From contig DATKAN010000043.1 in the NCBI GenBank assembly GCA_035498035.1, positions 23,639 to 87,638 of the forward strand: a DNA stretch of 64,000 bases. Direction: 5' to 3'. Numbering within the stretch: position 1 is the stretch's first letter; each line of letters opens with the position of its first letter. The DNA comes from Nitrospiria bacterium. GTDB taxonomy: Bacteria > Nitrospirota > Nitrospiria > JACQBZ01. This document shows, piece by piece, positions 2,033 to 44,864 of this stretch. The notes under the pieces are model-generated. The model was given only the letters and a program-made list of their open reading frames with translations. It was not told where the DNA came from and did not search any database. The translations under genes were made by a program, and so were the position numbers.

Positions 2033-2044
2033 CGCCGGATCCGC

Positions 2045-3553
2045 TCACGATTCCTTGGTTTTTCCCATCCGAAGACTGAGCCAGATCGCGAGACTGACGA
2101 TCGCGAAGAAAGCGATGGTCATCGCCGTGATCATCACGCTGGCGTGAGCGAGCGTGGGCGTGTAGGACTCGGGGGAGTAATCCGGAAACAGAATGTAGAC
2201 ATGGAAATATTTTCGCACCAGGGAACGCACGGCGCCCATCAGGCCCATCGTCCAGATCGCCGAAAAGGCCAGGAAGATCAAAACGAACTGGGAGGCGAAG
2301 TCGATCTTGCCCCACTGAATCGTGCCGCGCTTGATGGCCCGGTTGTAGATGATGTAGTTGATGATCGTTATCGCCACGATCAGGGCCGCGGCCGTGCTCT
2401 TCGCGGGCATCAGCGCCAGGAATCCCCAATCCGAGGGCAGCTCCAGCGCGTCAGTCGCGGTCGCCTGGGTCGCGGAGAAGCCGTGCGGGGTCATCCAGAT
2501 GGCGTTCCCGAGCAGGATGATCGCAAAGCCGGATTTCACCATGACGGAGTTGGGGATTCCGAGGAACTTCATCGTTTCGATGCCCGAGATGCGCTTCATC
2601 GATTGCCAAATGTACAGATTGCTGGCCGTGAAGATCAGTCCGACCATGGCCCCCTGCATCTCGAAATACATCGAGAGCTGGTCGGCCATCATGTACGGCC
2701 CGATCGAGGCGTCGAACTCGAAGAATTCGGCCGCGAGAATATAACCTGCCAGCGGGAGAAGAAGAAGGGCCCCCACGCCGATCAAATTCCCCACAAAGCC
2801 CATCCAGTCATAATAAGCCTTCTCCTCCGGCGTCTTGGCAAACATGTACATGTAGGCCGCGATCAATCCGGTGATGAATCCGCCGAAGGTCACGTTCCCG
2901 ATCGTCCGGTGAAGATTTAACGGCATCCAGCTGTAGTTGTAGACCGAATCCCAGAGGGTGGCGGTCTCGATGGGATGGGGCGGTGTGTTCATGAACGAAG
3001 TCGGGGCGTTGATCACGACGAGGGTGGTCAGTCCGATGATGTTCAGCAGCACCCCGATCGCAACGTGACGGCCTTTTTTCGGCCCCATGAGTTTGTCCCA
3101 GGTATACCAGTAAAGGTAGAGCACCAAGGTCTCGGCGATGAACAGGAGCGGATAGATGATCGCAAAGATGGGGAAGAAATGGCTCACCAGAAAACTGGTC
3201 AGGTTGGGATAAAGACCGATCAGAAACAGAATGAACAGCCCCCCCGTCAACGCCGTCATGCTGTACAGGATCGTGGTGACCTTGGTCACTTCCTTGGCCA
3301 GCCGGTCGTATCGGGGATCGTTTTTACGCATCCCGATCCATTCCGAGATCACGACGAAGATCGGAGCCCCGAGAATAAAGGCCGCGAAAAGGATGTGCAT
3401 CTGCGCCGCAATCCAGACCAGCCCCCGGTTCTCGATCCCCGGGATCGAATAGCCCTCCGGTTCCGGCACCTGAGCATGGCCCGCTCCGGCCATCAGACCC
3501 AGGCCGATCAGACCGAGGAGAATCGCAAGGAGGGTCAAGCGCCGGCGTTTCAT
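2045..3553 (-). CDS. cytochrome bd oxidase subunit I-like polytopic membrane protein (bd-like oxidase)
   Basis: 502-aa multi-helix membrane protein whose N-terminal region resembles CydA. No cydB-like gene is adjacent. Its ATG overlaps the stop of the upstream cytochrome c gene (ATGA). Confidence 0.6.
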   Translation of the reverse strand: MKRRRLTLLAILLGLIGLGLMAGAGHAQVPEPEGYSIPGIENRGLVWIAAQMHILFAAFILGAPIFVVISEWIGMRKNDPRYDRLAKEVTKVTTILYSMTALTGGLFILFLIGLYPNLTSFLVSHFFPIFAIIYPLLFIAETLVLYLYWYTWDKLMGPKKGRHVAIGVLLNIIGLTTLVVINAPTSFMNTPPHPIETATLWDSVYNYSWMPLNLHRTIGNVTFGGFITGLIAAYMYMFAKTPEEKAYYDWMGFVGNLIGVGALLLLPLAGYILAAEFFEFDASIGPYMMADQLSMYFEMQGAMVGLIFTASNLYIWQSMKRISGIETMKFLGIPNSVMVKSGFAIILLGNAIWMTPHGFSATQATATDALELPSDWGFLALMPAKSTAAALIVAITIINYIIYNRAIKRGTIQWGKIDFASQFVLIFLAFSAIWTMGLMGAVRSLVRKYFHVYILFPDYSPESYTPTLAHASVMITAMTIAFFAIVSLAIWLSLRMGKTKES

Positions 3554-4020
3554 TTAGGTGCTCCGGCTGGCGGCGTGTATTCGTGAACGGCGGGTTGGCC
3601 TCCGTGTGAAAAGGTGTTTTCGAAGGCCATGACCTTCCAGCGGTCCTCTTCCGAAAGCTTTTCCTTCCAGGCCTTCATCTTGGTGTTCGGCACTCCTTCC
3701 GAAATTCTCCAGAACCAGAAACTATCCGAAAAATATTTCATATTCTCGGCCTGACGGAAGTCGCGGGCGCCTCGTTTAACCGGCTTCCCGTCTTTTCCGT
3801 GACAGCTGGAGCAGTTGACGTCGATATTCGCCTCGCCCATGAATATTTTTTTCCCTTCATCGACGATTTTCGGATCCACCCACCATCCCTCCGGCATATG
3901 CTTATTGGCGTATTCCGCCGGAACCGGAGGGAATTCGAGAGGATTCTCCCCGCCCCCGCTGCACGCCGTCATGAACGCTATGATACCGATTCCGCCCAAT
4001 ATCGATGACCATCTTTTCAT
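3550..4020 (-). CDS. c-type cytochrome, exported (probable lipoprotein)
   Basis: Signal peptide MKRWSSILGGIGIIAFMTAC and a CSSCH heme motif. AAGGAG-like SD upstream of the ATG near 4020; the ORF is open to 4083 but those extra codons are unlikely to be translated. Confidence 0.7.
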   Translation of the reverse strand: MKRWSSILGGIGIIAFMTACSGGGENPLEFPPVPAEYANKHMPEGWWVDPKIVDEGKKIFMGEANIDVNCSSCHGKDGKPVKRGARDFRQAENMKYFSDSFWFWRISEGVPNTKMKAWKEKLSEEDRWKVMAFENTFSHGGQPAVHEYTPPAGAPK

Positions 4021-5446: not shown

Positions 5447-5484
5447 TAATTTAAAATGCTTGTTGCACCGATGGTTACAGGACC

Positions 5485-6357
5485 TTGCGGGGAATCGATT
5501 TGAAAAAAATCGGGATCATTGCCAAACCCCAGAATACGCATGCCGTAAAGAAAATCCTGGATGACCTTCTCCCCTGGCTGACCCAGCAGGGAAAAGAGGT
5601 GATTTTGGACACCGACACCGGCTCGATCGCCGGCGTGGCCTCTCCTCACCAGAAATCGAAGGTTCCCTCCCTGGTCGAAATGGTGATCGTTCTGGGCGGC
5701 GATGGAACACTCTTAAGCGTCGCCCGTCTGGTCGAGGGGACCGATGTTCCAATCCTGGGGGTGAACCTCGGAGGATTGGGCTTTCTGACGGAGGTCACGG
5801 TTGAAGAATTGTTCAGCACGCTGGGCAAGATCTTCAAGAACGAATACGTCACGGACGATCGCCTGATGCTGAAGGCCGATGTTCACCGTCAAGGCGAACG
5901 GGTGGCCCAGTCCCTGGTTTTAAACGACGTCGTCATCAGCAAGGGGACCTTGGCCCGGATGATCAAACTGGAGATCTTCATCAACAGTCAGTTCGTCACC
6001 GCCTTGCGGGGAGACGGGCTGATCCTGGCCACGCCCACCGGATCAACGGCCTACTCGCTCTCGGCCGGAGGACCGATTATCTATCCCTCGGTCGAGGCCA
6101 TGGTGATCACCCCCATCAGCCCGCATACCCTGACCAACCGCCCGATCGTGATACCGAACGATATCCATGTGGAAGTGGTTCTGAAAACTCGGGAGGAAGG
6201 AACGGCGGTTACGTTTGACGGTCAGGTCGGATTCTCGCTGAGGCACGAAGATGTGGTCGAGATCGGAACGGCCGAGAGTAAAATCAAATTAATTCGATCG
6301 CCCCAACGGAACTATTACGAGGTCCTTCGTCGAAAGCTGAAATGGGGTGAAGGGTAA
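5485..6357 (+). CDS. nadK: NAD(+) kinase
   Basis: NadK family with GGDGTLL motif and conserved C-terminal region. Start is TTG at 5485 or the in-frame TTG at 5500 (MKKIGIIAK). Confidence 0.85.
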   Translation: MRGIDLKKIGIIAKPQNTHAVKKILDDLLPWLTQQGKEVILDTDTGSIAGVASPHQKSKVPSLVEMVIVLGGDGTLLSVARLVEGTDVPILGVNLGGLGFLTEVTVEELFSTLGKIFKNEYVTDDRLMLKADVHRQGERVAQSLVLNDVVISKGTLARMIKLEIFINSQFVTALRGDGLILATPTGSTAYSLSAGGPIIYPSVEAMVITPISPHTLTNRPIVIPNDIHVEVVLKTREEGTAVTFDGQVGFSLRHEDVVEIGTAESKIKLIRSPQRNYYEVLRRKLKWGEG

Positions 6358-6374: not shown

Positions 6375-7742
6375 TTACGACATCCTCTTGCGATGGATGG
6401 CCGACAGCATCTGCTGGTTGGTCGGAAATTTAAACCCTTCGATGATTCCTCTCCGCTTTCCTTCCTCTTCCTCCATTTCCATGAGCAAGCAAAGATCTTC
6501 TTTACGAACCGCGTCCGGCTGTCGTTTTTCGATTAAGCGTGTCAACTTTTTGGTTCGTTCCTCGATCACCGCGGGCTCCAACGGGTCTCGGGAGGCGAGA
6601 TAACGGTCCAGAACCCCGCTGCACCAATCCCCGTCCCGTTTGGCCACCCCGACCAGACCTTCGCTGGCCTTCCGGGCCCATCCGGTCAGAAAAACGCCTT
6701 CGAGGACCCGGCCGGTCTGGTCGTCGTAAGCCTGAAACAGGGACTCGTCCGGCTCGTTCCGGGTTGGATTGGGGTTGGTCAGAAAGGTGCCGTTCTTAAA
6801 CGGAAGGCCGAGCGTTTCGTCCACACGGTCTCCCACCGCGAAGACGACGCTGTCGCAGGCAAATTCACGGGTGGTCTTCAACCCGACCGCGGAAAAATCC
6901 TCACCCTTCGGCTCCAGCTTCGTGTCTTCCAGTTCCAGTCCCCGAACCCGATTTTTGGAATCCGTCAAAACCCGGCGGGGAGAGGAGAGAAATCGGAAAC
7001 GAAGCTCCGTGTCGCTCCCGGCCGGCTCGCATTTCGTCATTTCTTCCAACATACCGGACAGCAATTGGTCGGGGTTCTGACCCACCGCCTCCAGTCGTTG
7101 ACGGATGCGGGAGAACTCCCGGCTTAGATCCTCTTGATCGATATTATCGCAGACCGCGCGAATCTCTTTCGGATTGTATTTGCGTTCCGCGGGGCCCCGC
7201 CGCGCAATGGCCGTGACCTCTTTGACCTTTTTATAACGAATCAGCCAATGGGCGATGTCGACCATCACATCGCCGATCCCGATCACGGCCACCCGCTGGC
7301 CCATATCGAACGGCTTCTGGCTGAAACCCGGCAACAAATTATAATGGTAGACGACGTCCTTGGCGTGGTAGACACCGATCGCGTCATCCCCTTCCACGCC
7401 GATCGTTTTTGTCCCCTGTGCGCCGGTGGCAAAGACCAGGGCGCTGGCCCCGATTTCATGGAGATCCGAAACCATGATGTCCTTGTTCTTACCGACCGCC
7501 ACCTGGCCGAAATAATCCACATTTTCCCGATTCAGAATTTCCCAATATCCCTTTTTGAGCCCGCCGCGGAGCCGGTGTTTGGTCGGGAAAATGCCGTATT
7601 CGGCCAATCCGCCGAATTTGATGTCGCGGTTTAAAACCACAACCCGGTGGCCCGCCCTGGACATGTTATTGACGACCGCCAGCCCGGCCGGACCGGCCCC
7701 GATGACGATGATGAGGTGCGAGGAGTGATTTTTGGATGCCAT
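6375..7742 (-). CDS. FAD/NAD(P)-binding oxidoreductase, ferredoxin-NADP(+) reductase (FprA) / glutamate synthase small-subunit-like
   Basis: N-terminal IGAGPAGL dinucleotide-binding motif and a second Rossmann motif VAVIGIGDVMVD; 455 aa. Confidence 0.6.
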   Translation of the reverse strand: MASKNHSSHLIIVIGAGPAGLAVVNNMSRAGHRVVVLNRDIKFGGLAEYGIFPTKHRLRGGLKKGYWEILNRENVDYFGQVAVGKNKDIMVSDLHEIGASALVFATGAQGTKTIGVEGDDAIGVYHAKDVVYHYNLLPGFSQKPFDMGQRVAVIGIGDVMVDIAHWLIRYKKVKEVTAIARRGPAERKYNPKEIRAVCDNIDQEDLSREFSRIRQRLEAVGQNPDQLLSGMLEEMTKCEPAGSDTELRFRFLSSPRRVLTDSKNRVRGLELEDTKLEPKGEDFSAVGLKTTREFACDSVVFAVGDRVDETLGLPFKNGTFLTNPNPTRNEPDESLFQAYDDQTGRVLEGVFLTGWARKASEGLVGVAKRDGDWCSGVLDRYLASRDPLEPAVIEERTKKLTRLIEKRQPDAVRKEDLCLLMEMEEEEGKRRGIIEGFKFPTNQQMLSAIHRKRMS

Positions 7743-8004
7743 TTTATCGCCGTATTATTGTTCGCTTGATCGCTTTGTATTCGCTTTTACGGAGCTTATC
7801 CCGAACCCGCTTCCGGAACTGTATGGTTTATGGCACGACAAAATCGAAGCCATTTTAGCATACCAATTCAGGGTTTGTCAAAAACTATGTTTTGCCTTTT
7901 GGGCGATCATAACTCTGGAATAAATCAGGGGGAGTTGATGAGGAGGGATAATTTTATGGTCGTCAAATACGGCGGGTGAAATGACACGGGCATTAGGTAA
8001 TTCA

Positions 8005-8080
8005 TGGTGGAGCTGGCCGGGATTGAACCGGCGACCTTCTGATTGCGAACCAGACGCTCTCCCAACTGAGCTACAGCCCC
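8005..8080 (-). tRNA. tRNA-Ala (anticodon CGC)
   Basis: Minus-strand sequence GGGGCTGTAGCTCAGTTGGGAGAGCGTCTGGTTCGCAATCAGAAGGTCGCCGGTTCAATCCCGGCCAGCTCCACCA folds as a cloverleaf with G3:U70 in the acceptor stem (the Ala identity element), anticodon loop TTCGCAA, and an encoded CCA. Confidence 0.9.
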
Positions 8081-8104
8081 ACGCAGGTTTCAAGCCATGT
8101 GCGA

Positions 8105-8356
8105 TTACGGACCAACGACCGGTACGGTCCGATCTTTAAAAATTCGTTCAAAGCGGGGCCGATAAATCCGATCGAACAGCTCTCCGCCCTCTGGAAACAA
8201 TAATAACACATCGCGCCGGGCTTCGACAATACGATGGTGGGCCTCCGCGCGCGTCGTTGTTCTCCATCGCAGGTCCGCGGCCGTCCGATCGACGATGCGT
8301 CGCAGCCGCTTGAGCTTGAACTCTTCCTCGAGCAGGTCGTCCAAATATTCGGTCAC
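8105..8356 (-). CDS. hypothetical small protein
   Basis: 83-codon ORF whose GTG start overlaps the stop of the upstream TPR gene (GTGA); charged helical composition. No recognisable domain. Confidence 0.25.
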   Translation of the reverse strand: MTEYLDDLLEEEFKLKRLRRIVDRTAADLRWRTTTRAEAHHRIVEARRDVLLLFPEGGELFDRIYRPRFERIFKDRTVPVVGP

Positions 8357-8841
8357 GACAGTACGGGATTCCGGATCTCTTTATCCTTGGGGCGGAGGCG
8401 CGAGGTGATCATACCCAGGTACTTATTGAGCACATGGCTTCGCGTCAGGAAACCCAGAACCGGCTTTCGGCGGATGCCCAGCCTTCGAAGCTCCGCCAGA
8501 ATTCCGGGATCCTGGTTGTCGATCTTCAGGCCCTTGTACAACACATCGACCGCGCTGGAGCGGCGATTCGCCGACAAATAAACCCGTGAAAGGTTGATAT
8601 AAAACTCCGAACGGTAGAATTCTTTTTTGATCGCCGTGGTGCAGTAGGTTACGGCTTCCTTGATCCGGTTTTCTCCCAGGGCCAAGGCAAGACCAAAATA
8701 GGAGAGCAATTCCGGCGGCACCGCGGAAGACGAATCCTCTTCATAGGCCGCCAACAATCGGCGAAAGTAGGACAGCGCTTCCGGATAATTCGCTTCTTTG
8801 AGATAAGCGCAACCCAGTAAAAAAGTGTCATTAAGCAACAT
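8353..8841 (-). CDS. TPR repeat-containing protein
   Basis: TPR-like helical repeats (AYLKEANYPEALSYFRRLL..., EAVTYCTTAIK...); 45 nt downstream of purN. Confidence 0.5.
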   Translation of the reverse strand: MLLNDTFLLGCAYLKEANYPEALSYFRRLLAAYEEDSSSAVPPELLSYFGLALALGENRIKEAVTYCTTAIKKEFYRSEFYINLSRVYLSANRRSSAVDVLYKGLKIDNQDPGILAELRRLGIRRKPVLGFLTRSHVLNKYLGMITSRLRPKDKEIRNPVLS

Positions 8842-8886
8842 GGCCGATAATCCTCCCGTATCAGCGAATACGCTTTATACCGACTT

Positions 8887-9558
8887 TTAGAGACCGATCT
8901 CGATCATGGGCGATAGGATCTTCGCCCCGGTCATTTTCGGGGCCGACTTTACGATCACCCGCCGACCCGAGACCTCCAACCTCTGTTCCGCAATATACTG
9001 TATGGCCTGCGGAAGAATCCGATGCTCTTCCTCCAGGATTCGTGCCGCCAGGGTTTCTTCGGTGTCTCCATCGTAGACCGGCACCGCCGCTTGAATGATG
9101 ATCGGACCCTGATCCATCGATTCATCCACGAAATGAACGGTGCATCCCGAAACCCGGGCACCCCATTCCAACGCTTGTCGGTGGGCGTGAAGCCCGGAAA
9201 AAGCCGGCAAAAGGCTGGGATGAATGTTGATAATCCGATTCTTAAAGGGTTCGATCAATTGAGATGTAATCAAACGCATGTAACCGGCCAGGATTACCAA
9301 ATCAACCTGGTGCTTGCGCAGTAGATCAACGAGGGCTTCATCATACTTTTCACGGCTCGAATAATCTTTGGGATTCAGAAAAAAGGCCGGAACCCGGCTC
9401 CGGCGGGCGTGGTCGAGGGCCGGTGCCTGCGATTTATCGCTGATGACCACCTCCACGCCAGCATCGATCTTGACGGACGAGGCGGCGTCAATGATCGCCT
9501 GAAGGTTTGAGCCGCGGCCAGAAACGAGAATCCCCAACCGAAGCTTGGATTTATTCAT
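8887..9558 (-). CDS. purN: phosphoribosylglycinamide formyltransferase
   Basis: PurN family: GSGSNLQAII-like N-terminus, NIHPSLLP motif and the formyltransferase core. Confidence 0.85.
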   Translation of the reverse strand: MNKSKLRLGILVSGRGSNLQAIIDAASSVKIDAGVEVVISDKSQAPALDHARRSRVPAFFLNPKDYSSREKYDEALVDLLRKHQVDLVILAGYMRLITSQLIEPFKNRIINIHPSLLPAFSGLHAHRQALEWGARVSGCTVHFVDESMDQGPIIIQAAVPVYDGDTEETLAARILEEEHRILPQAIQYIAEQRLEVSGRRVIVKSAPKMTGAKILSPMIEIGL

Positions 9559-10582
9559 AGGAGACTTTTTTCTCCCCGTGGATGACCTTTCCGATTAAAA
9601 ATGCCGGCTCACCCAAACTCTTGAGCCTCTCCATGGCCTGATCGGCCTGCTCGGGTCCGATGACGGCCACCATTCCGATCCCCATGTTGAAGACCCGATA
9701 CATTTCATCGGTGACGATCCCGCCCTGCTTTTCGAGCCATCCAAATACGGCCGGGACGGGCCAGCTCCCCCGTTTGATCCGGGCCTGACACCCTTCTGGA
9801 AGAATGCGCGGAATATTTCCGGTGAGTCCCCCTCCGGTGATGTGGGCCAATCCCTTGACATCCACATCGCGAACCAATTGCAGGACAGATTTGACATAAA
9901 TTTTGGTTGGGGTGAGAAGCTCGTCGCCCAGACGCTGGGTCCATCCGGGGATCCGATCCGTGAGCTTATGACCCGCCACCTCAAACGAAATCTTACGCGC
10001 CAGAGAAAACCCGTTGCTATGCAGACCGCTCGAGGCGAGGCCGATCAAGACATCCCCCGCTTTAATGCGGCTGCCATCAATCACCTGGCCTTTTTCGATC
10101 ACGCCCACCGCAAACCCGGCAAGGTCATAGACTCCCTCCGGATAAAATGAAGGCATCTCGGCCGTCTCTCCGCCCAGCAAGGCGCATCCGGCCTGTCGAC
10201 AGCCATTGACGATTCCGCGGATGATCTCCACTCCGGTCTGGGGCTGCAGTTTGCCGGTCGCGAGGTAGTCCAGAAAGAAAAGCGGCTCGGCGCCCGTTAC
10301 GACCACATCGTTGACGGACATGGCCACCAGATCGATTCCGACCGTATTGTGCCGGTTCATTTCAATGGCGATCCTGAGTTTCGTTCCGACCCCGTCGGTC
10401 CCGGAAACCAGCACGGGGTCTTTATACTTTTTAGCCTCCAGTCCGAACAATCCGCCGAATCCGCCAATATCGGTCAGAACTTCCGGACGGAACGTGGAAC
10501 GAACCAACGGCTTAATCGACCGGACAAACTCGTCACCGGCCTCGATGTCAACCCCGGCCCTCTTATAGGTAAGACGCGGCAT
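9551..10582 (-). CDS. purM: phosphoribosylformylglycinamidine cyclo-ligase (AIR synthetase)
   Basis: PurM family: N-terminal YKRAGVDIEAGDE... and AIR synthase-related domains; overlaps the purN start. Confidence 0.9.
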   Translation of the reverse strand: MPRLTYKRAGVDIEAGDEFVRSIKPLVRSTFRPEVLTDIGGFGGLFGLEAKKYKDPVLVSGTDGVGTKLRIAIEMNRHNTVGIDLVAMSVNDVVVTGAEPLFFLDYLATGKLQPQTGVEIIRGIVNGCRQAGCALLGGETAEMPSFYPEGVYDLAGFAVGVIEKGQVIDGSRIKAGDVLIGLASSGLHSNGFSLARKISFEVAGHKLTDRIPGWTQRLGDELLTPTKIYVKSVLQLVRDVDVKGLAHITGGGLTGNIPRILPEGCQARIKRGSWPVPAVFGWLEKQGGIVTDEMYRVFNMGIGMVAVIGPEQADQAMERLKSLGEPAFLIGKVIHGEKKVSYE

Positions 10583-10823
10583 GGATATGGCTGGGCCCCT
10601 AAAAATAGATTCTAATAATAATACAAGAAAAGCCGAAAAAGATCAACCTCCCCGGGGCACTAAAAACGAGCCAATCTAAAAAATTACCCCCCTCCTGTCC
10701 ATGTCCGGAAATGTCGCCTCCCGGCGGGGGCATGACCCTCCGGTTGTCATTTTTAGGGAATAAACTAAAGCACGGCGAGACTTTTTTTGTTCAAAAATCC
10801 ACAAACAGGTCCTTATAAAGAAA

Positions 10824-10853
10824 GAGGCACGGTCCCTTTCGGTACCGTGCCTC
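10824..10853 (-). terminator. intrinsic terminator candidate downstream of the Met-rich protein gene
   Basis: About 9-bp GC-rich inverted repeat gaggcacgg / ccgtgcctc with ~12-nt loop, followed on the minus strand by TTTCTTTAT; begins about 18 nt after the stop at 10871. Confidence 0.5.
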
Positions 10854-10870
10854 ATTTTAGAAAGTATAGA

Positions 10871-11167
10871 CTACTTCTTCTCCATCTTCATGTCCATCTT
10901 CATGTCCATCTTCATTTCCATGGCCTTGATGGATTTTGCATGTCCATTGGCATCGTCCACTTCGACATTAGCCCCGGCCTTGATATCTCCGGTCTTCTGA
11001 GTCGAATTATCAAAATGGATTCGGTGCTCCTTCCCCTCCTTGTCCTTGACGACATAAAAAGAGCCGTCGATTTTCGTCAGCTCGCCCGTAACCATTCCGG
11101 CCCAACTCATGCTGACAAAAGACAGGACCACAACCCCTACAACCAAACCCAGTAACATTCGCTTCAT
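10871..11167 (-). CDS. small secreted protein with C-terminal Met-rich repeat (MEMKMDMKMDMKMEKK)
   Basis: Signal peptide MKRMLLGLVVGVVVLSFVSMSWA, ~55-aa mature domain, and a C-terminal MxM tandem repeat encoded by a 12-nt tandem DNA repeat. Intrinsic terminator follows. Confidence 0.5.
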   Translation of the reverse strand: MKRMLLGLVVGVVVLSFVSMSWAGMVTGELTKIDGSFYVVKDKEGKEHRIHFDNSTQKTGDIKAGANVEVDDANGHAKSIKAMEMKMDMKMDMKMEKK

Positions 11168-11296
11168 AATGTTTCACCCCCTCTCCGCACTACAATTAAG
11201 TCCGAACTCTGAACAACCCATATCATCATTCAACCATGCGGCAACTTTCGTCAAGTAGATTTAGCCGAAAGTCTCGCTTGCGTCACCGAGCCTGAC

Positions 11297-11608
11297 CTAT
11301 TTCTTTTTCTTAGGAGCCGTTTTGGCGGAGGATTTCGGCGACTTCTTCTGAAGTTCCGCTACCTTGGCCTTAAGGTCTCCATTCTCCTTCTCAAGGTCGG
11401 CATTCTTTTTCTTCATCTCGTCCATTTGAGCCATCGTTTGACCCATCTGGGCCTGCATCCCCGCCTTGTCTTTCGTCATCGTGTCCACCTGCTGCTTCAG
11501 CTTGGCATTTTCATCTTTCAACTGCTTTGATTCACAGCCGGACAAAACAGGCAGAAACAAGAAAGAAAAAATTACCGCTGACAGGATCATTTTCCGCATG
11601 TCATTCAC
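11297..11608 (-). CDS. small lipoprotein with coiled-coil and Met-rich segment
   Basis: Lipobox LSGC after the signal peptide, heptad-like K/E/Q-rich region, and MQAQMGQTMAQMDEM. Confidence 0.45.
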   Translation of the reverse strand: MNDMRKMILSAVIFSFLFLPVLSGCESKQLKDENAKLKQQVDTMTKDKAGMQAQMGQTMAQMDEMKKKNADLEKENGDLKAKVAELQKKSPKSSAKTAPKKKK

Positions 11609-11814
11609 CTCCTCTCTGTTTACTAATTTTCTCGTTCGTATGGTTCTCCGGGCATGCGCCGTCGCTTGATTCAGAGAGCAAAACGGTCATGAGCCATCGG
11701 ACATAATAAAGCATTTTTTATGCCATTTATTAAAAATTCCCATATTGAATATTTCTTTTAATTTTAGGATATTGTGTCAAAGCTGCGAAACATTAATTAA
11801 AATACTCCATACCG

Positions 11815-13227
11815 CTACACCTTTTCTGAGGTCTTGTCTGCCTCATTTGCGGCAAGGATTCCGGGTTTTTTAATTCCGTGCTTTTCCAAACGGTATTGCA
11901 AGGTTTTATAGGTCAGCCCCAGTAGTTTAGCCGCTTTCATGATAATCCAGTCGGATTGCTCCATGGCCTTAAAAATCAATTCACGCTCAAGCTCATCCAG
12001 GGAGATACCTTCAGCGGGCAACTGCAGTCCGAGTCCCGTCATCGGGGACGGCAGCCGGCAGATTTCCGGAGGAAGATCGGCGACGTCGATCACCTCCTGG
12101 CCGCAAAAAAGAACCGCCCGTTCAATGGAGGACTCCAATTGACGAACATTTCCAGGCCACGAATACTCGAGCAGCTTTCGCATGGCCTCACGACTTACGC
12201 CTTGGACCGGCCTTTCCGTTTTTTGGCTGTAGATCCGGATGAAATGCTGTACCAACTCCGGGATATCCGTGCTGCGCTCACGCAACGGAGGAATTTGAAT
12301 CGAAATGACATTCAACCGGTAATAGAGGTCTTCACGGAACAGATCCTTCTTGATCTCCTGATCCAGGCGCTTGTTGGTGGCCGCAATGACACGGACGTCG
12401 ATGGCCGTCTCTTCGGATCCTCCGATCCGCCGGATCTGTCGTTCCTGAAGCGTGCGAAGCAACTTGCCCTGAAGATGAAGACTGAGATCGCCTACCTCGT
12501 CCAGAAAAAGGGTTCCGCCATCGGCCGCCTCGAATAGCCCGATTCGTCGGCCCGCCGCCCCCGTAAATGCACCCTTTTCGTAACCGAACAATTCGCTTTC
12601 GATCAGCGTATCGGGAATGGCGGCGCAATTAATCGCCTGAAAGGGTTTATTCTTCCTCGCGCTATTGAAATGAATGGCACGGGCCAAGAGTTCCTTTCCC
12701 GTACCGGACTCCCCGTTGATCAGGACGGTCGCGGTGCTGTTCGATATTTTCTTAACCACATCAAAAACTTCCTGCATCCGGGGATGATTTCCTATTATGT
12801 TATTTATATGAAATTTTTCTTGAAGTTGTTGTCGGAGCCGGCTGTTTTCTTTTATGAGAGAGATCTTTTCAAAGGCCCGTTTTACCGCGATCAGCAGTTC
12901 TTCCCGCTCCAGCGGTTTGGTGATGTAATCCAATGCCCCCAGCTTCATCGCCTCGACCGCCGAATCAATCGAACCGTGGGCCGTCATGATGATTACGGAC
13001 GCGGACGGGTTCAACTGAAAAATCTTTTGAACGATCCCTAAGCCCTCCGTATCCGGCAGCTTCAGATCCGTCAGGACCACATCATATTCCCCGTTTTGGA
13101 ATTTACCCACCGCCTCCTTTGCGGTCGAGGCAAGATCCACTTCATATTTTTCAGACCGGAGAATGAGCCCCATAATTTCACGCTGGGACCGCTCATCATC
13201 AATCACAAGGATATTGCCCGGCTTCAC
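11815..13227 (-). CDS. sigma-54-dependent response regulator (NtrC family)
   Basis: Receiver domain (ILVIDDE...DVVLTDLKLPD), AAA+ sigma-54 activator domain (GESGTGKE, GAFTGA, ESELFGYEKGAFTGA) and C-terminal HTH. Probable GTG start at ~13227 overlaps the kinase stop (GTGA); the ORF is open to 13296. Confidence 0.85.
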   Translation of the reverse strand: MKPGNILVIDDERSQREIMGLILRSEKYEVDLASTAKEAVGKFQNGEYDVVLTDLKLPDTEGLGIVQKIFQLNPSASVIIMTAHGSIDSAVEAMKLGALDYITKPLEREELLIAVKRAFEKISLIKENSRLRQQLQEKFHINNIIGNHPRMQEVFDVVKKISNSTATVLINGESGTGKELLARAIHFNSARKNKPFQAINCAAIPDTLIESELFGYEKGAFTGAAGRRIGLFEAADGGTLFLDEVGDLSLHLQGKLLRTLQERQIRRIGGSEETAIDVRVIAATNKRLDQEIKKDLFREDLYYRLNVISIQIPPLRERSTDIPELVQHFIRIYSQKTERPVQGVSREAMRKLLEYSWPGNVRQLESSIERAVLFCGQEVIDVADLPPEICRLPSPMTGLGLQLPAEGISLDELERELIFKAMEQSDWIIMKAAKLLGLTYKTLQYRLEKHGIKKPGILAANEADKTSEKV

Positions 13228-14696
13228 GCATGTACTCCTTCCATGGGAAGGGATATGGTGACGGTCGTTCCCATCCCCTTCACGCTGGCGACCCAAATGG
13301 TTCCGCCATGCTCTTCCAAAACCCGTTTTGTCAACGCCAGTCCCAGTCCGATGCCGAGTTTCTTGGTCGTAAAATAGGGTTCGAAGATCTTTTGAAGGTG
13401 GTCCGCTTCGATGCCGCAGCCGGTATCTTCAAAATGCACCAGGACTCGGCTGTTCTCGTCGTCCATTTGTGCATGAATCCGCAACACCCCCCCCTGGCTC
13501 ATGGCCTGAAGCGCATTGACCGTGATGTTCACAAAACAGTTTTTGATCTGTTCCACATCGACCAACACCCGCGGAAGATCGCGAATGCCCCGAGTCTCAA
13601 ATTGAACCCCTTGATCCGCTCCCTTGGGGAGGGCCAATTGGAGGACATCGGACAAAATGGCGGCCAAATCGGCCGATTGCATCTGCAGGCGAATCGGTTT
13701 CCCAAAATCAAGAAAATTTTCGATCATTCGGTTCAGCCGATGAATTTCGGTCTTGATGTTGACGACCAGTTTGTCGATTTCTTCCTTATCAATAAAACGA
13801 GCCCGATCCAACTGGACGCGCAAATGATCGATGGAGAGGTTGATCAGATTCAAGGGATTGCGGATTTCATGGGCGATCCCGGAAGCCAATTGGCCGACGG
13901 CCGAGAGATGTTCCGCATGGCGCAGGCGGCCTTCGAGGGATTTCTGCAGCCGGAGCTTTTCCACCATTTCATTGAAGCTTCGGGTCAGCTCGCCGATCTC
14001 CTCTCCGCCCCCCTGTACGACCAACGGAGTGCTCAAATCGCCGGCCGCAACGTTTTTGGCCGCTTCCACAACCTGTTTGATGGGACGGGTGTATCGCCAC
14101 GCCAGATAGAACGAGAGGAAGATCCCCATCGAGAATATCGCGATATGCACGGCCAGACGTGTATAGAAGCTTCGCCGGATCAGGCGGTTAAAATCATCCA
14201 TGATCATGATGATATGGACATAACCCAACTGCTCCCCACCGACAACGATCGGGACCAAAATGTTATAGGGCTTCTGGTCTTTTTTCGTTCCGGCGTCCTC
14301 TCCGATCCGTTCTGTAATGATCAGATCGCGATGCTTGGGATCCGGAGATCGCTCTTTCCGATGAGGATTTGAACTGGCGATGACTTGATTTTCGTTGCTC
14401 AGAATGGAAATTTCCTTTACCCCTTTCTTATTGAGCCGCTTGACGTAATCTCTCAAACGGGCCTCGTCCGTGGCCCCGTGCGTCGTCAGCTGTTCGACGC
14501 TGATCTGGATCGCCGTCGTCAGGTCCTCCGTGTCGGCCATGATTTCTCTGACGACCGCTTGCTCGGTCAGCCAGTAGAAGGCCAAGGAGGCCATCAAGGA
14601 TAACAACAAAAGCGAGAGCATCATGAGGAGAAGCTTGGTATTGAGCCGGAGATGCTCCAAGCGATTGGAGATAGTTCTCAATGCGGATCTTACCAT
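13224..14696 (-). CDS. sensor histidine kinase (periplasmic sensor, HAMP, HisKA, HATPase)
   Basis: Two TM helices flanking a ~130-aa periplasmic region, HAMP, H-box (SGIAHEIRNPLN), and N/G boxes (DTGCGIE, GLGLAL). Confidence 0.85.
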   Translation of the reverse strand: MVRSALRTISNRLEHLRLNTKLLLMMLSLLLLSLMASLAFYWLTEQAVVREIMADTEDLTTAIQISVEQLTTHGATDEARLRDYVKRLNKKGVKEISILSNENQVIASSNPHRKERSPDPKHRDLIITERIGEDAGTKKDQKPYNILVPIVVGGEQLGYVHIIMIMDDFNRLIRRSFYTRLAVHIAIFSMGIFLSFYLAWRYTRPIKQVVEAAKNVAAGDLSTPLVVQGGGEEIGELTRSFNEMVEKLRLQKSLEGRLRHAEHLSAVGQLASGIAHEIRNPLNLINLSIDHLRVQLDRARFIDKEEIDKLVVNIKTEIHRLNRMIENFLDFGKPIRLQMQSADLAAILSDVLQLALPKGADQGVQFETRGIRDLPRVLVDVEQIKNCFVNITVNALQAMSQGGVLRIHAQMDDENSRVLVHFEDTGCGIEADHLQKIFEPYFTTKKLGIGLGLALTKRVLEEHGGTIWVASVKGMGTTVTISLPMEGVHA

Positions 14697-15929: not shown

Positions 15930-16883
15930 TCAAGTCTTGACCGCATGGACAGGATGGGAGATAAACACCCACCCGAGGCCGCCAAGGACATTAAGCGAGG
16001 TATTCAGGATCAACCAGAGAACGGCAAAAGCCAAGGCCTGAGGGTTCGCAACCCCCGCCTGGGTCAAAAAATATACGTATGCGCCCTCTCGAACACCCAA
16101 GCCGTTCAAGCTGATCGGAACCATACCGGCCACGGTTACCAGGGGGATGAAAACAAAATAATATTCCCATGGGACGGAGACGTTCACCGCCAGACCGATG
16201 ATCATGCTGATGATAACGACGGACAGTTGGATAAAAAATGAGGCCGCAAGCGATGCCGCCATGAACCGAGGATTTTCCCAGTAGCGATAGGGCAATTCAT
16301 ACCTCCTCAAAAAACCTGGAAATGCAAATGGGATAAAAAGACCCAGTATCAGCAAGGCCGTCGCACCCAGTATGAAGGCGGTCATCCAGACCGGGACCGT
16401 CACCGAGCCGGCCAGCGATAGGGCAAAGGAGGTGATGCACAGAAGGGCGGTCATCCCGCTGATCCGATCGGCCAGGATAGTCGTCATCGCGCGCAGGATG
16501 TCGCTGCGACCCCCGGCTAAATAGTAGCATTTTCCGAGGTCACCCCCGATCGAAGTTGGAAGAAAGAGGTTGAAAAATAAGCCGACAAAGTAAAAAGCGG
16601 CCAGGCGACCGAAGGATTGCCGATAACCCTGAACCCGCGCCATAACCTGCCAACGAAGGATTCCGACAAACTGCAGCCCGAAAAAGCTGACCCAGGCCAG
16701 CACAAAATAGCCGACATGAAGATTCTGCAGCACGTGCCCCACCGAAGGGAGATCGATTTTTGAAAACAGAAAGCCGAGTAAGCCCAGACTGACGATCGCT
16801 TTCAGAGAGGTCGTCAGCCATCGGCGAGGCCCGGGCGATGGCGGAATGGAAATCGCGATTTTAGAAATTGGTGGCCAGGACAT
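15930..16883 (-). CDS. flippase-like integral membrane protein (lysylphosphatidylglycerol synthase TM-region / UPF0104 family)
   Basis: Polytopic membrane protein with composition typical of this family; overlaps the ArnT-like gene upstream. Confidence 0.6.
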   Translation of the reverse strand: MSWPPISKIAISIPPSPGPRRWLTTSLKAIVSLGLLGFLFSKIDLPSVGHVLQNLHVGYFVLAWVSFFGLQFVGILRWQVMARVQGYRQSFGRLAAFYFVGLFFNLFLPTSIGGDLGKCYYLAGGRSDILRAMTTILADRISGMTALLCITSFALSLAGSVTVPVWMTAFILGATALLILGLFIPFAFPGFLRRYELPYRYWENPRFMAASLAASFFIQLSVVIISMIIGLAVNVSVPWEYYFVFIPLVTVAGMVPISLNGLGVREGAYVYFLTQAGVANPQALAFAVLWLILNTSLNVLGGLGWVFISHPVHAVKT

Positions 16884-18522
16884 AGCCTCCCTGCTCCGAG
16901 CGGATGATCAGCTGAGGCATGGTATCCAAGACCGGGACCAAATGGATTTGGCTCAACACCACCGCACGGCCATGAGCCGATAAAAATCGGCGCAGGTCTT
17001 CCTCCTGCTTTGACTTAAAGATGACCGCCCCTCTGCGGGCATAAAACAATATGCTGGGTTTTTTCAGCCCGAAGACCACCAGAGGTTCCTCGGGACGAAT
17101 CCACCCGCGCGTTTCTTGAGTCAGGTTTCGCAACGGCACTTGAATATAGGAACTGACGGATGGAATGAAGTCGAACAGCAAGACAAATACAAAGACTCCC
17201 ATCATGAGAACCAACACCATAAAACCCGCCCACTGCCTCCCGAGGCGCAGCAGCGCATAGTAGGTCATCACCCCGATCAAGGGAACCCCGGCCATGACCA
17301 TCAACACCCCGTTCAACTCAATCGGCTGGGCCAGGAAGGGCGCCAAGGCTCCGAATTTTACCCGTGCCCATTCGATCCCTTGGGGAATAGACAAAATCAG
17401 GACGGCCGTAATCAGAGTCAGGCCGACCGTAAAGCCCATCGTAAGTCGGTCTTCCACCCGGACCGTTGACGGTGCCGCATCCATTCTCCGGTCCATATAA
17501 CGGGCCACCCAAATGGCCAAAGCCGGAACGGCGGGTGCGATATAGCTGGGAAGTTTGGTGCCGGCCAAGGTAAAGAAAAGGAAGACGACCGCGACCCATA
17601 GCAGAAGAAACCACTCCAACGGATGGTTCGCCGGAAAGAGCCGGAGATTTTTCCATCGCTCCGATAAGTCCTTGCCGGGGAACATGGAAACAACGGAAGC
17701 GGGAAGGAACGCCACCCATGGGAAAAAACCAATCGCCAGGATTCCCAGATAATAGAACGGGGCCCCGGCATGGCCTCCGAGAACGGACGTGAACCGCTCG
17801 ATATTATGGTGCAGGAAAAAAGATTTCCAAAAAGCCTCGCCGTGAAGGCGAAACATCGCCGCATACCACGGCAGGGCGATGGCGCCGAAGATCAAAATAC
17901 CCCATCCCGGTCGAAGATCAAGAATCAGTTTCCATCGGGGGCCAACGGTGAGGATGAAAAGAAAAATCGTCATTCCCGGCAGAACAAGGCCGACCGGACC
18001 TTTGGTCAAAACCGCCAGGGCGGCGCCCAGATAAATCCCGACGGCCCAGAGGGCGCGCTCTGTTTTGTAGAGCAGGTAGTAACTGGCCAGCGAGACCGTG
18101 ATAAAAAAAACCAAAAGCATATCGGTCAAGGCGGCATGGGATAGCGCTACCATCTCAAGATTACTGGCCAGGATGAGCATCGCCAACAATCCGGCTCTGG
18201 GGCTCGCGACCCGCCGGGTCAAACCATAGGTCACGACCAGCAGCGCGAGACCGAAGACCGCGGATGTCAATCGAGCCGCAAATTCGGACGGCCCGAAAAT
18301 CTTGAAGGCCGCTCCCATGAACCAGTACAGCAGAATGGGCTTTTCGTAAAAGGGCGAGTAATTAACCTGCGGAGTGATCCAATTACCGGTCTCAACCATT
18401 TCCCGGGTGGTTTCGGCGTAAATCGCCTCGTCCAAATCAAACAGCGGCACGGCCCCGAGCTGATAGAAGAAAAGAAACCCTCCCAGCATCAGCGCCGGCC
18501 AGAAACCGGTGTTTCGGGTCAT
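16861..18522 (-). CDS. ArnT/PMT-family glycosyltransferase (GT39/GT83, polyprenyl-phosphate-sugar dependent)
   Basis: N-terminal FFYQLGAVPLFDLDEAIYAETTREM...YSPFYEKPILLYW pattern characteristic of ArnT/PMT transferases; 553-aa multi-TM protein. Confidence 0.7.
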   Translation of the reverse strand: MTRNTGFWPALMLGGFLFFYQLGAVPLFDLDEAIYAETTREMVETGNWITPQVNYSPFYEKPILLYWFMGAAFKIFGPSEFAARLTSAVFGLALLVVTYGLTRRVASPRAGLLAMLILASNLEMVALSHAALTDMLLVFFITVSLASYYLLYKTERALWAVGIYLGAALAVLTKGPVGLVLPGMTIFLFILTVGPRWKLILDLRPGWGILIFGAIALPWYAAMFRLHGEAFWKSFFLHHNIERFTSVLGGHAGAPFYYLGILAIGFFPWVAFLPASVVSMFPGKDLSERWKNLRLFPANHPLEWFLLLWVAVVFLFFTLAGTKLPSYIAPAVPALAIWVARYMDRRMDAAPSTVRVEDRLTMGFTVGLTLITAVLILSIPQGIEWARVKFGALAPFLAQPIELNGVLMVMAGVPLIGVMTYYALLRLGRQWAGFMVLVLMMGVFVFVLLFDFIPSVSSYIQVPLRNLTQETRGWIRPEEPLVVFGLKKPSILFYARRGAVIFKSKQEEDLRRFLSAHGRAVVLSQIHLVPVLDTMPQLIIRSEQGGYVLATNF

Positions 18523-19151
18523 GATTTAAAGTACTCCAACTTAAGCCGCGAAGCCCACATCCCGATCAACACGCCCAAAACGGCCCCGACGAAGACGTCC
18601 GAGGCGAAATGGGCGCCGATATAAATCCGTGTAAAGGCCACGAGGACAGCGAGAGAATACCAGGCCCATTGGCCGGCCGGGTAGAAGGCGGACAGAACCG
18701 CCGCCATGGCAAAGGATGACAGGGCGTGTCCGGATGGAAGAGAGTCATGGCCGCTTTGAAAAGAAGGACCCCAATCGACGATCCCCTGATCCGCCAGTCT
18801 GGGCCGTGGCCGTCCGATCAGGTGCTTGATCGTCTGAACCGCAAGACCGGAAACCGCCAGGGCAATCAGGCTCGACACGGCGGCCTTCTTCAATTTAAGG
18901 TTTTCTCGCAGGGAGCCGATTCCGAGGAGAACGGCCGCAATAAGCGCCTGGACCCACCCGACTCCCAGCCCGGTCAGGAAATGCATGAACCTGAGCAAGA
19001 CGGGATCCCGCAGACCTTTAAAGACACGGTAGATCAGGCCGTCTTCAAGAATGATTAACGGAAAAAGCCCTATAAGGATGAGCGTCCAGGTCAAACCCTT
19101 TCGGGTCATCTGCAAACGATCGGCACAATCCGAGATCGGATTAATCATCAA
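18519..19151 (-). CDS. PAP2-family phosphatase (phosphatidic acid phosphatase type 2 / lipid phosphate phosphatase)
   Basis: PAP2 signature motifs KHLIGRPRP, PSGH, and SRIYIGAHFASD. Confidence 0.7.
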   Translation of the reverse strand: MMINPISDCADRLQMTRKGLTWTLILIGLFPLIILEDGLIYRVFKGLRDPVLLRFMHFLTGLGVGWVQALIAAVLLGIGSLRENLKLKKAAVSSLIALAVSGLAVQTIKHLIGRPRPRLADQGIVDWGPSFQSGHDSLPSGHALSSFAMAAVLSAFYPAGQWAWYSLAVLVAFTRIYIGAHFASDVFVGAVLGVLIGMWASRLKLEYFKS

Positions 19152-44590: not shown

Positions 44591-44864
44591 AAAGCTCCAG
44601 ATGCCCCCTCCGGGGACTTCCACATTTCGTATTACTGGAAGGGGGCCGCGAGGCCGCAGGGACCGAGGAGCCCGGAGCGTAAGGCAATAGGTACGTGAGG
44701 ACACCGAGGGACGGAGAACAAAGCAGATGGACTTTTTCAGCAGTTTGCAAGAGGGCATAAAAAATCCCCAAAGGCAAAACACCCAGCCCTTGAGGATTGC
44801 ACCCTGCTTCTTCACCCTAAGGTGAGCCGATCCGCCTTCTTCAATCGAAACGGAATAGGCCGCG

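Follow-up and report, generated by a model that had tools for sequence, protein, structure and literature searches.

What is the function of two small exported proteins whose genes lie directly behind a sensor kinase and a sigma-54 activator? This question is raised by the minus strand of a 64-kb stretch of a Nitrospiria metagenome-assembled genome contig (here called the window; all window coordinates are positions within this stretch). Read 5' to 3' on that strand, the locus holds a histidine kinase gene, a gene for an NtrC-type response regulator, a 215-nucleotide (nt) intergenic region, a lipoprotein gene, a 129-nt spacer, a gene for a 98-amino-acid (98-aa) protein, and a terminator. A preliminary description had pointed to two small exported Met-rich proteins downstream of a sigma-54 two-component system, and all of the features that it described are present on the minus strand. 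Our comparisons give good support to the prediction that the genes of the two exported proteins form an operon that depends on sigma-54 and is governed by the neighboring two-component system. We consider it on balance probable that the region is the output operon of that system and encodes an inducible envelope-protection pair, in which Met-rich surfaces would have a soft-metal or oxidant role. Judged by their conservation, the features of the locus are not chance, because both proteins have many homologues at 62 to 100% identity (73 clusters for the 98-aa protein and 18 clusters for the lipoprotein).

The link between the two-component system and the pair comes from the intergenic region. 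A predicted sigma-54 (-24/-12) promoter, TGGCATaaaaaATGCT, lies at 11710 to 11725 on the minus strand, 111 nt upstream of the lipoprotein ATG (promoter end to ATG). In a scan for sites of the GG-N10-GC type, it was the one found in the neighborhood. It has GG at -24 and GC at -12 at the right spacing for the consensus TGGCAC-N5-TTGCW and stands upstream of a gene, and the pattern TGGCAY-N6-TGCW has this single match in the 64-kb window, where 0.24 matches would be expected. A search for comparable loci, seeded with an alignment of close homologues of the 98-aa protein (A1), returned Nitrospirota loci only; all loci compared are numbered with an L below. The gene order Sua5, histidine kinase, response regulator, lipoprotein, 98-aa protein, PurM is kept in L006 to L010 (at least six syntenic loci in all). 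When the intergenic regions of these five two-component-system loci were aligned, TGGCAT-N5-ATGCT was invariant in all of them, amid strongly diverged DNA. L006 to L010 and L024/25 each have one copy of the exact motif, in the corresponding position, and 0 of the other 20 loci have it. In L011, the lipoprotein and 98-aa protein genes are found at the same chromosomal position (Sua5 ... PurM) without the kinase or the regulator; there the sigma-54 motif is absent, with a sigma-70-like TTGAAT-17-TATACT in its stead. This co-variation in presence and absence of the motif and the two-component system is the strongest available evidence that the regulator would drive the pair through the site at 11710 to 11725.

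A search for a sigma-54 promoter upstream of each of the two small genes had been suggested, and such a site was found for the lipoprotein gene and not for the 98-aa gene. No TGG-N9-TGC motif occurs in the 129-nt spacer before the 98-aa gene (11168 to 11296, minus strand), and it is therefore most likely that both genes belong to a single operon, with its end at the terminator. The sequence of the spacer is not conserved in L006, and its sigma-70-like match is weak (TTGACG-18-AATGAT, 9/12 positions). The clean intrinsic terminator previously noted after the 98-aa gene was recovered at 10817 to 10853 (minus strand), as a 12-bp G+C-rich hairpin (GAGGCACGGU.CC-GAAA-GG.ACCGUGCCUC) followed by UUUCUUU. 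Over a 71-nt stretch it folds at -24.8 kcal/mol (z = -3.86), and 0 of 200 shuffled sequences were as stable. A simple terminator scan overlooked this hairpin, which has one internal mismatch, and folding recovered it. In five orthologous loci (L006 and L008 to L011), the lower stem GAGGCACG/CGTGCCTC and the T-run are kept and the upper stem co-varies.

Some relatives carry an additional promoter-like element. L008 (about 5470 to 5500) and L009 (about 5540 to 5570) have a sigma-70-like TTG(T/A)AT-17-TATACT downstream of the sigma-54 site and ahead of the lipoprotein gene, and in L011 (about 5560 to 5595) it is the only promoter-like element (alignment A4, columns 146 to 179). The TATACT box is absent from the window. 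Thus, some strains may have dual expression of the pair, basal and induced.

The histidine kinase and NtrC-type regulator lie directly upstream of the pair, as had been reported. The kinase (490 aa; 13224 to 14696, minus strand) has an N-terminal transmembrane segment, a periplasmic sensor region, a second transmembrane segment, and the Pfam domains HAMP (E = 5e-15), HisKA (2.5e-11), and HATPase_c (7e-23). Among NCBIfam models, AtoS and ZraS matched best, over no more than the C-terminal half, and every match stayed below its cutoff. The ZraS model gave 191.1 bits (cutoff, 479), and the heavy-metal kinase model TIGR01386 gave 122.5 bits (cutoff, 292.55). The regulator is an NtrC-type sigma-54 enhancer-binding response regulator of 470 aa (11815 to 13227, minus strand). 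Its open reading frame (ORF) reaches back to a TTG at 13296; the ATG at 13227, which overlaps the kinase stop by 4 nt, gives the 470-aa version chosen by gene callers. The domains found were Response_reg (4.5e-30), Sigma54_activat (8.7e-73), AAA_lid_14, and HTH_8 (6e-12), and the translation contains the GAFTGA motif of an NtrC-type sigma-54 activator. With 404.8 bits against a ZraR cutoff of 760, it is not a ZraR orthologue. The window regulator is NtrC-type and not OmpR-type, and the system falls outside the heavy-metal two-component models (TIGR01386 and TIGR01387).

What are the two proteins that this system would control? The distal gene (10871 to 11167, minus strand) encodes the exported 98-aa protein, with a signal peptide (residues 1 to 23), an oligonucleotide/oligosaccharide-binding (OB) fold core (24 to 83), and a Met-rich tail (82 to 98). 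It had been called secreted, in agreement with the predicted Sec-type signal peptide MKRMLLGLVVGVVVLSFVSMSWA/GM (the slash marks the cleavage site). The protein is identical to the GenBank entry "hypothetical protein VMN77_08930 [Nitrospiria bacterium]." All source-named members of its 73 homologue clusters are from Nitrospirota, and most are unnamed. Across 31 aligned sequences, the core is highly conserved and the signal peptide ends in SWA/GM; M25, D34, Y38, H48, and H51 are invariant, and H76 is nearly so (at least 90%). The AlphaFold2 model is a six-stranded barrel with a core predicted local distance difference test score (pLDDT) of about 88 and a disordered tail (pLDDT below 50 for residues 88 to 98). 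Generic OB topology (strand order 1-2-3-5-4) raises the idea, which we do not put forward as a result, that M25, H48, and H76 might lie together at one end of the barrel. Foldseek returned OB folds at E values of about 4e-3 or weaker, with no single solved structure prominent, and a search of the family profile against PDB sequences gave nothing below E = 0.5. The 98-aa protein is therefore a predicted small periplasmic OB-fold protein. That its ORF might be spurious, lying opposite a 122-aa plus-strand ORF, is ruled out by the 73 homologue clusters, a conserved Shine-Dalgarno sequence, and the conserved signal peptide.

The preliminary description had likened the small proteins to CusF, PcoC/CopC, and PcoE/SilE, and for the OB protein this likeness did not hold. 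The Pfam search was empty for the 98-aa protein, with no match at E ≤ 1 to CusF_Ec, CopC, PcoE/SilE-type, or BOF models; in NCBIfam there was no match at E ≤ 1 to CopC or PcoE/SilE families and none to the BOF model NF033674. Its best NCBIfam match was ExtJ (NF040942, "selenite/tellurite reduction operon protein"), with an E value of 2.7e-8 and a score (34.1 bits) that falls short of the 52.5-bit cutoff. The match spans residues 1 to 82 on profile positions 1 to 70 of 77; the protein is homologous to ExtJ and lies outside the equivalog. A profile search of 1.84 billion representatives found a wider family of 409 members at E ≤ 1e-3 (representatives at 50% identity), and in many of these the OB domain is repeated in tandem, two to four times. 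Among 85 single-domain representatives of this family, 56 match the ExtJ model (best E value, 9.5e-12), 5 to 7 match BOF, YgiW-YdeI, or DUF5666 models (6 for BOF PF04076 and 5 for NF033674; E ≤ 0.01), and 0 match CusF_Ec (PF11604) at E ≤ 0.01. The four-domain protein P0094 alone passes the Pfam BOF cutoff (43.9 versus 25.8 bits), and it also passes the DUF5666 threshold. When the family profile was aligned by hhalign with Escherichia coli YgiW, the probability was 85.8% (E = 5e-6) over 55 columns across the OB core, which would be a remote relationship; with E. coli CusF it was 9.3% over 24 columns, with the CusF metal-site region not aligned. The family has its own conserved signature, H-x-D...T...GHA. 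In the wider family, H51 and H76 are both present in 101 domains, both missing in 70, and mixed in 50. These comparisons place the 98-aa protein in an apparently unnamed ExtJ-like OB-fold family that would be remotely related to the BOF/YgiW stress proteins, and they indicate that it is not a relative of CusF, CopC, or PcoE/SilE.

Several members of the wider family have unusual forms. P0094, P0100, P0101, P0105, and others are exported proteins with 2 to 4 tandem OB domains joined by Pro/Ala-rich linkers. A distant member in L021 (2085 to 2375) is unusually His-rich (GKGHGN..., DDHGKEHVLHVDAHA, GAHVEADAEANGHAKSIKAHEKEMKH) and adjoins IS21-like transposase genes; its composition is a hint that some branches of the family, at least, may truly bind metal.

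The Met-rich tail of the OB protein varies in length. The C-terminal end, AMEMKMDMKMDMKMEKK, is of the (M-[ED]-M-K)n type and is encoded by a 12-nt tandem repeat, ATGAAGATGGAC (10881 to 10921, minus strand), that reads M-K-M-D. This repeat had been called perfect, which is true of its central units and not of the whole: by eye, perfect periodicity extends over 35 nt, or 2.9 units of ATGAAGATGGAC (two central units and part of a third), and Tandem Repeats Finder reports 3.4 copies with 96% matches (score, 75). We counted tail residues in the orthologue subgroup to which the window protein belongs, whose sequences have no insertion after KID. Tails in it follow the pattern x-M-[ED]-M-K-M-[DE]-M-K-M, in which the odd positions alternate between acidic residues and Lys, and at least two tail Met residues are present in 52 of its 56 clusters. 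At successive even positions, Met was found in 40/58, 52/58, 42/56, 32/47, and 18/36 clusters. A comparison of repeat copy number across related genomes had been suggested, and the number does differ. Tail lengths run from 4 to 22 aa in steps of about 4 aa, and P0002, which is 98% identical to the window protein, is shorter by one unit (4 aa, 12 nt). It appears that the tail motif is maintained and that the number of its copies is not stable, which is what slippage during replication of a 12-nt repeat would produce. In the paralogous subgroup, 7 of 15 clusters have 0 tail Met, and most paralogues lack a Met tail. Only about a dozen of 150 representatives of the wider family have Met-rich tails, a few of them with His. 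The gene context of two distant Met-tailed members (P0144 and P0196) was uninformative, on contigs under 2 kb.

The proximal gene (11297 to 11599, minus strand) encodes a small lipoprotein with a lipobox (LSG/C), an amphipathic coiled-coil helix of about 60 residues, and a disordered Lys/Pro/Ala-rich tail. It had been listed as a 103-aa lipoprotein, and of this the lipoprotein assignment stands and the length probably does not. The 103-aa ORF starts at a GTG at 11608. The start is most likely the ATG at 11599, which gives 100 aa, because the GTG overlaps the GGAGG Shine-Dalgarno sequence, GAGAGGAGGTGAA plus the ATG is invariant in six loci, and gene callers choose the ATG. All source-named members of its 18 homologue clusters are from Nitrospirota. 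These homologues conserve the lipobox, C-E-S/T-K-Q after it, several heptad Leu/Val/Asn positions, and a Lys-rich C terminus; the last residue is Lys in nearly all of them and Arg in two. The AlphaFold2 model is a single helix (residues 2 to 85) that is Met/Gln-rich in its middle, with pLDDT below 50 for residues 87 to 100.

The sequence MQAQMGQTMAQMDEM is indeed found within the coiled coil, as the preliminary description stated, but its reading as a metal motif was not supported by comparison of the homologues. Of the six Met residues in the mature window lipoprotein, M48 alone is predominantly Met in orthologues, and the other five exchange with L, V, A, T, S, or Q. Most of them occupy heptad a/d positions (27, 31, 34, 38, 41, 45, 48, 52, 55, 59, 62, 66, 69 ...). 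Because Met lies at core positions and exchanges with other residues, MQAQMGQTMAQMDEM is probably for the most part a Met-rich coiled-coil core and not a fixed MxxM motif. The Pfam and NCBIfam matches of the lipoprotein were sub-threshold coiled-coil families, and CopC and PcoE/SilE-type families were absent from the best 25 of 61 (Pfam) and the best 25 of 35 (NCBIfam) such families. Its sole above-cutoff match, to Pfam bZIP_2 (23.8 versus 22.3 bits), is a coiled-coil artefact. The CwlO/PcsB-type hydrolase names given to such proteins at JGI are likewise ruled out, since the coiled-coil region alone matches and there is no catalytic domain.

Besides the pair of the window, a second, paralogous pair of OB protein and lipoprotein was found. 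In the paralogous pair the order is OB gene and then lipoprotein gene, adjoining a divergent dapA gene. In L004 and L005, this pair lacks a two-component system; it has a terminator of its own and a perfect TTGACA-17-TATAAT promoter. In L014, L015, and L019, genes for an OmpR-type regulator and a kinase immediately precede the paralogous pair. Only the OB gene was seen behind an OmpR-type system in L017, where the contig ends just past it, and in L018, where no lipoprotein gene follows. The system of L015 is borderline against the heavy-metal models, with the kinase at 292.0 bits (cutoff, 292.55) and the regulator at 261.8 bits (cutoff, 279.2), and the regulator scores 202.8 bits against the HprR model, below its cutoff. 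We regard this system as probably CusRS/CopRS/CzcRS/HprRS-like. The window and L015 kinases could be aligned only from HAMP on, with no detectable similarity of their sensor domains. These arrangements suggest that the conserved core is the pair of OB protein and lipoprotein; two unrelated types of two-component system stand before its paralogous copies, and each copy also occurs without one.

Met enrichment in both partners is confined to the sigma-54 group, throughout which the coiled-coil segment of the lipoprotein remains Met-rich in composition. There the tail has 2 to 7 Met residues, versus 0 to 2 in the paralogous group, and the mature lipoprotein has 4 to 6 (4.8 to 7.6%), versus 0 to 2 in the lipoproteins of paralogous pairs (6 versus 4 loci), where the Met share is 0 to 1.2%. 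The OB paralogue behind the CusRS-like system of L019 (4077 to 4412) has a different low-complexity tail, KKAEKKEKKAEKKEEKKEEKKEEKK. Expandable charged tails thus seem to recur in the ExtJ-like family, beyond Met repeats.

A third type of OB paralogue stands alone, just downstream of a protein of about 421 aa with five CxxCH motifs, in L001 (5275 to 6540), L012 (4556 to 5821), L013 (4519 to 5790), and L016 (3041 to 4306); in L001, a FIST gene lies between the two. This cytochrome-adjacent paralogue may point to an older cytochrome-linked role of the family. In L015, the paralogous pair is followed by cellulose-biosynthesis genes at 6702 to 8234 (minus strand) and 8376 to 10637 (plus strand), which encode BcsG (above its cutoff, at 438 bits) and a BcsA-like synthase that contains a PilZ domain.

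How does this locus compare with known systems? By analogy, the BOF group appears to be the best match in fold, size, location, and regulation. The BOF proteins (YgiW/Salmonella VisP, YdeI, and SipA) resemble the window protein in being small and Sec-exported, in having a single OB fold, and in being adjacent to or controlled by a two-component system. In E. coli, ygiW adjoins qseBC, as the cus genes adjoin cusRS. SipA of Vibrio cholerae is a BOF protein under two-component control, dependent on VC1639; this protein binds antimicrobial peptides, has OmpA as an interaction partner, and is required to tolerate cadmium and peroxide (PMC5636140, PMC6370654). The window protein differs from the BOF group in its Met-rich repeat tail, its sigma-54 control, its obligatory-looking coiled-coil lipoprotein partner, and its lack of a BOF match at E ≤ 1; few of the 85 representatives match, and those weakly. 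ExtJ is the closest named relative at the sequence level, and both are small and periplasmic. It is a protein of unknown function from the Geobacter extHIJKL cluster (PMC6148476, PMC5877670). The Nitrospirota paralogue beside a pentahaem cytochrome recalls the Geobacter ExtJ-ExtK arrangement. However, genes for a porin, a rhodanese, or a cytochrome are absent from the window locus, whose neighbors are the two-component system, the lipoprotein gene, and pur genes. The ExtJ match gives a family name, not a mechanism.

CusF and the C-terminal domain of SilB share Met and His candidate ligands with the window protein, and the paralogous pair stands beside a CusRS-like system as cus does beside cusRS. 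Unlike for CusF, the CusF_Ec model is not matched, ligand positions are not aligned, and no CusCBA-type pump is nearby. The Met/His-rich periplasmic metal sponges PcoE/SilE and the cyanobacterial CopM are encoded beside PcoRS/SilRS/CopRS. They too are small exported Met-rich proteins beside a two-component system, with a likely disordered Met segment. They are largely disordered or helical, with MxxH/HxxM motifs, and show no sequence match to the window protein, whose Met segment is a short appendix without His, alternating with K/D/E, on a folded OB domain.

ZraPSR of E. coli and Salmonella likewise combines sigma-54 control with a small periplasmic protein, ZraP, which is an alpha-helical member of the CpxP family. 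ZraPSR and the copper-responsive CorSR of Myxococcus (PMC3707914), sigma-54 two-component systems for metal or envelope-stress responses, share with the window locus the kinase architecture, a regulator with REC, sigma-54 AAA+, and HTH_8 domains, and an output that includes small exported proteins from sigma-54 promoters. Unlike ZraPSR, the window locus has an OB fold and a coiled-coil lipoprotein instead of ZraP, and its regulator and kinase score below the ZraR and ZraS cutoffs. Unlike CorSR, which controls a multicopper oxidase and a P-type ATPase, it has no such genes within 10 kb. The layout parallels both systems by analogy. Braun's lipoprotein Lpp of Enterobacteria has a lipobox, a single long heptad-repeat helix, and a C-terminal Lys, and the window lipoprotein, whose helix is of similar length, is like it in anatomy only. 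It differs in a 15-residue disordered Lys/Pro/Ala tail before the terminal Lys and in its OB-fold partner.

From these data, we propose the following course of events. The membrane kinase would sense a periplasmic or envelope signal and phosphorylate the NtrC-type regulator, which would then activate sigma-54 RNA polymerase at TGGCAT-N5-ATGCT (11710 to 11725); the activity of this site is proposed, while its co-occurrence with the two-component system was observed. The layout suggests a single transcript through the lipoprotein and 98-aa genes to the conserved terminator. Both products would be exported, one as a lipid-anchored lipoprotein with a long coiled coil and a basic tail, and the other as a soluble periplasmic OB-fold protein with conserved His residues and the (M-[ED]-M-K)n tail. 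The pair would act together, with the OB protein binding a periplasmic ligand or partner and the lipoprotein positioning or assisting it at the membrane. In the least secure step, the Met-rich surfaces, which are specific to the orthologue group, would most plausibly bind Cu(I) or another soft metal, or else serve as a sink for oxidants.

Several observations weigh against this proposal. The pair in L011 has neither the two-component system nor the sigma-54 site, so the pair is not dependent on this regulator. The kinase may serve further targets, the 129-nt spacer could contain a second promoter or a processing site, and no conserved inverted repeat or enhancer (upstream activating sequence) upstream of the sigma-54 promoter is shared among the five loci. 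An interaction of the OB protein with the lipoprotein is suggested solely by conserved adjacency. The 98-aa protein lies under every curated family threshold, and every locus compared is from metagenome-assembled genomes of uncultured organisms.

What the pair would protect against can be explained in several ways, which are not mutually exclusive. As a compact envelope metal-response module, which is how the preliminary description saw it, the compact architecture stands and the analogies to Cu(I)/Ag(I) protein families do not; a metal role is backed by context only. We hold as a tentative possibility that the pair is a dedicated periplasmic Cu(I)/Ag(I)-binding module, in which the tail, a possible His/Met site on the OB domain, and the Met-lined coiled coil bind metal and the kinase senses it. 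This would agree with the maintained (M-x)n tail with Met at even positions in the orthologue group, with the co-occurrence of Met enrichment in both partners of the sigma-54 group, and with the full or near-full invariance of residues M25, H48, H51, and H76, of which the last two tend to occur together in the wider family. Tails rich in Met and His are found in some distant members, one paralogous pair immediately follows a two-component system at the heavy-metal threshold (292.0 versus 292.55 bits for the kinase and 261.8 versus 279.2 bits for the regulator), and CorSR is a precedent for a sigma-54 copper system (PMC3707914). However, the OB protein had no Pfam match at E ≤ 1 to CusF_Ec, CopC, or PcoE/SilE, and its 24 columns of alignment with CusF (9.3%) lie outside the CusF metal site. 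The tail varies from 4 to 22 aa even between near-identical strains, and the lipoprotein Met residues are mostly at core heptad positions, exchanging with L/V/A/T/S. The paralogues behind the heavy-metal-like system are those without a Met tail and without a Met-rich lipoprotein. Within 10 kb there is no gene for metal efflux, a P-type ATPase, or a multicopper oxidase, and the window kinase (122.5 bits) is far under the heavy-metal kinase cutoff of 292.55. About level with this, and held just as tentatively, is a non-metal, BOF-like envelope-stress pair. Here the OB protein would bind cationic peptides, peptidoglycan, or an outer-membrane protein, as has been reported for YgiW/VisP, YdeI, and SipA, and the lipoprotein would be an Lpp-like strut or tether that touches peptidoglycan or lipopolysaccharide with its basic, Lys-ending tail. 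The hhalign result with YgiW (85.8%), the 5 to 7 family members that match BOF/stress_OB_fold models, and the control of BOF genes by two-component systems in E. coli and V. cholerae (ygiW beside qseBC; PMC5636140; PMC6370654) are consistent with such a pair. So are the anatomy of the lipoprotein (lipobox, helix of about 60 residues, disordered tail, and mostly a C-terminal Lys) and the presence, a few kilobases upstream on the same strand, of a GT2, PAP2, ArnT-like, and LPG_synthase_TM gene cluster. This explanation leaves the Met co-enrichment of both partners unexplained; moreover, the window protein itself has no BOF match and any relationship is remote, the conserved His pair of the family is absent from YgiW in the hhalign alignment, and the resemblance to Lpp is anatomical only.

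Kinase feedback and oxidant scavenging are less likely. That the OB protein is a periplasmic co-sensor or feedback inhibitor of the kinase, as CpxP is for CpxA or ZraP for ZraS, seems improbable to us: the OB genes of this subfamily repeatedly stand directly after a kinase gene, in two unrelated types of two-component system, and ZraPSR offers a parallel for a small periplasmic protein in a sigma-54 layout, but the pair persists without an adjacent two-component system in L004, L005, and L011, further paralogues adjoin a pentahaem cytochrome instead, and the two kinases share no detectable sensor-domain similarity. More doubtful still is a sacrificial oxidant sink, with the Met residues of the tail and the lipoprotein scavenging hypochlorous acid (HOCl), peroxide, or reactive nitrogen and being recycled by a periplasmic methionine sulfoxide reductase. 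A tail that is Met-rich in composition without a fixed length would suit a sink. The CusS/HprS kinase family beside the paralogues includes an oxidant-sensing member (HprR score of the L015 regulator, 202.8 bits, below cutoff), and BOF proteins are linked to peroxide and cadmium tolerance (PMC6370654). Yet the genes found up to 10 kb from the window locus include none that is msrP/msrQ-like, and the paralogues beside the CusS/HprS-like kinase are Met-poor. A broader idea, which we think unlikely though worth stating, is that the ExtJ-like OB protein and the lipoprotein form a two-protein periplasmic buffering device, undescribed until now, that captures Cu(I)/Ag(I) or reactive oxidants at the membrane. 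Its parts would be the His/Met site of the OB domain, the slippage-tunable (M-[ED]-M-K)n tail, and a co-evolved "Met-zipper" lipoprotein, and this core pair would have been placed behind NtrC/sigma-54 and CusRS-like systems in different paralogues. If true, this would be the first function for the wider ExtJ family (409 representatives at 50% identity, many tandem-domain).

Two-component systems that control small periplasmic stress proteins are well known. CpxP, ZraP, Spy, YgiW/SipA, CusF, and PcoE/SilE are such proteins, the working parts of envelope-stress and metal responses, and to our knowledge almost all that is known of them comes from Proteobacteria. The window locus is a compact case from Nitrospirota, with a sensor, a sigma-54 activator, a predicted promoter, two putative effectors, and a terminator. 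At its center is a family of OB-fold proteins without a dedicated Pfam model or a known function, to which Geobacter ExtJ and hundreds of tandem-domain relatives belong. An ExtJ-like OB protein with a slippage-tunable (M-x)n tail, its coiled-coil lipoprotein partner, and interchangeable regulatory front ends have not been described before. If the pair binds metal or oxidants, a role would be assigned to the family and a binding tail tunable by repeat length would be shown. If it does not, the locus would be a clean case of regulatory plug-in evolution, in which one effector pair is joined to a sigma-54 two-component system, an OmpR-type two-component system, or a sigma-70 promoter. As the organisms are uncultured, the practical impact will be modest until the parts are tested in heterologous hosts.

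The surroundings of the locus within 10 kb include purine-biosynthesis genes and the GT2/PAP2/ArnT-like/LPG_synthase_TM cluster, and no metal pump, Cu/Ag efflux, P-type ATPase, or multicopper oxidase gene was found there. The cluster (15930 to 20112, minus strand) lies a few kilobases upstream of the two-component system; in it, purD and purE are interspersed among genes for a GT2 glycosyltransferase, a PAP2 phosphatase, an ArnT-like PMT_2 protein, and LPG_synthase_TM. It looks like a lipid A or membrane-lipid modification cluster, which would suit an envelope-stress theme. Elsewhere in the window, genes for a cytochrome c, a Cyt_bd_oxida_I-like protein, a second cytochrome c, and a Rieske protein follow in series at 871 to 4020 (minus strand); bd-like oxidase clusters such as this one have been discussed for Nitrospira respiration. 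A full-length cobalamin riboswitch lies at 44854 to 45018 (minus strand; 102.4 bits versus a gathering score of 31.5), and the sole tRNA of the window, tRNA-Ala (CGC), lies at 8005 to 8080 (minus strand).

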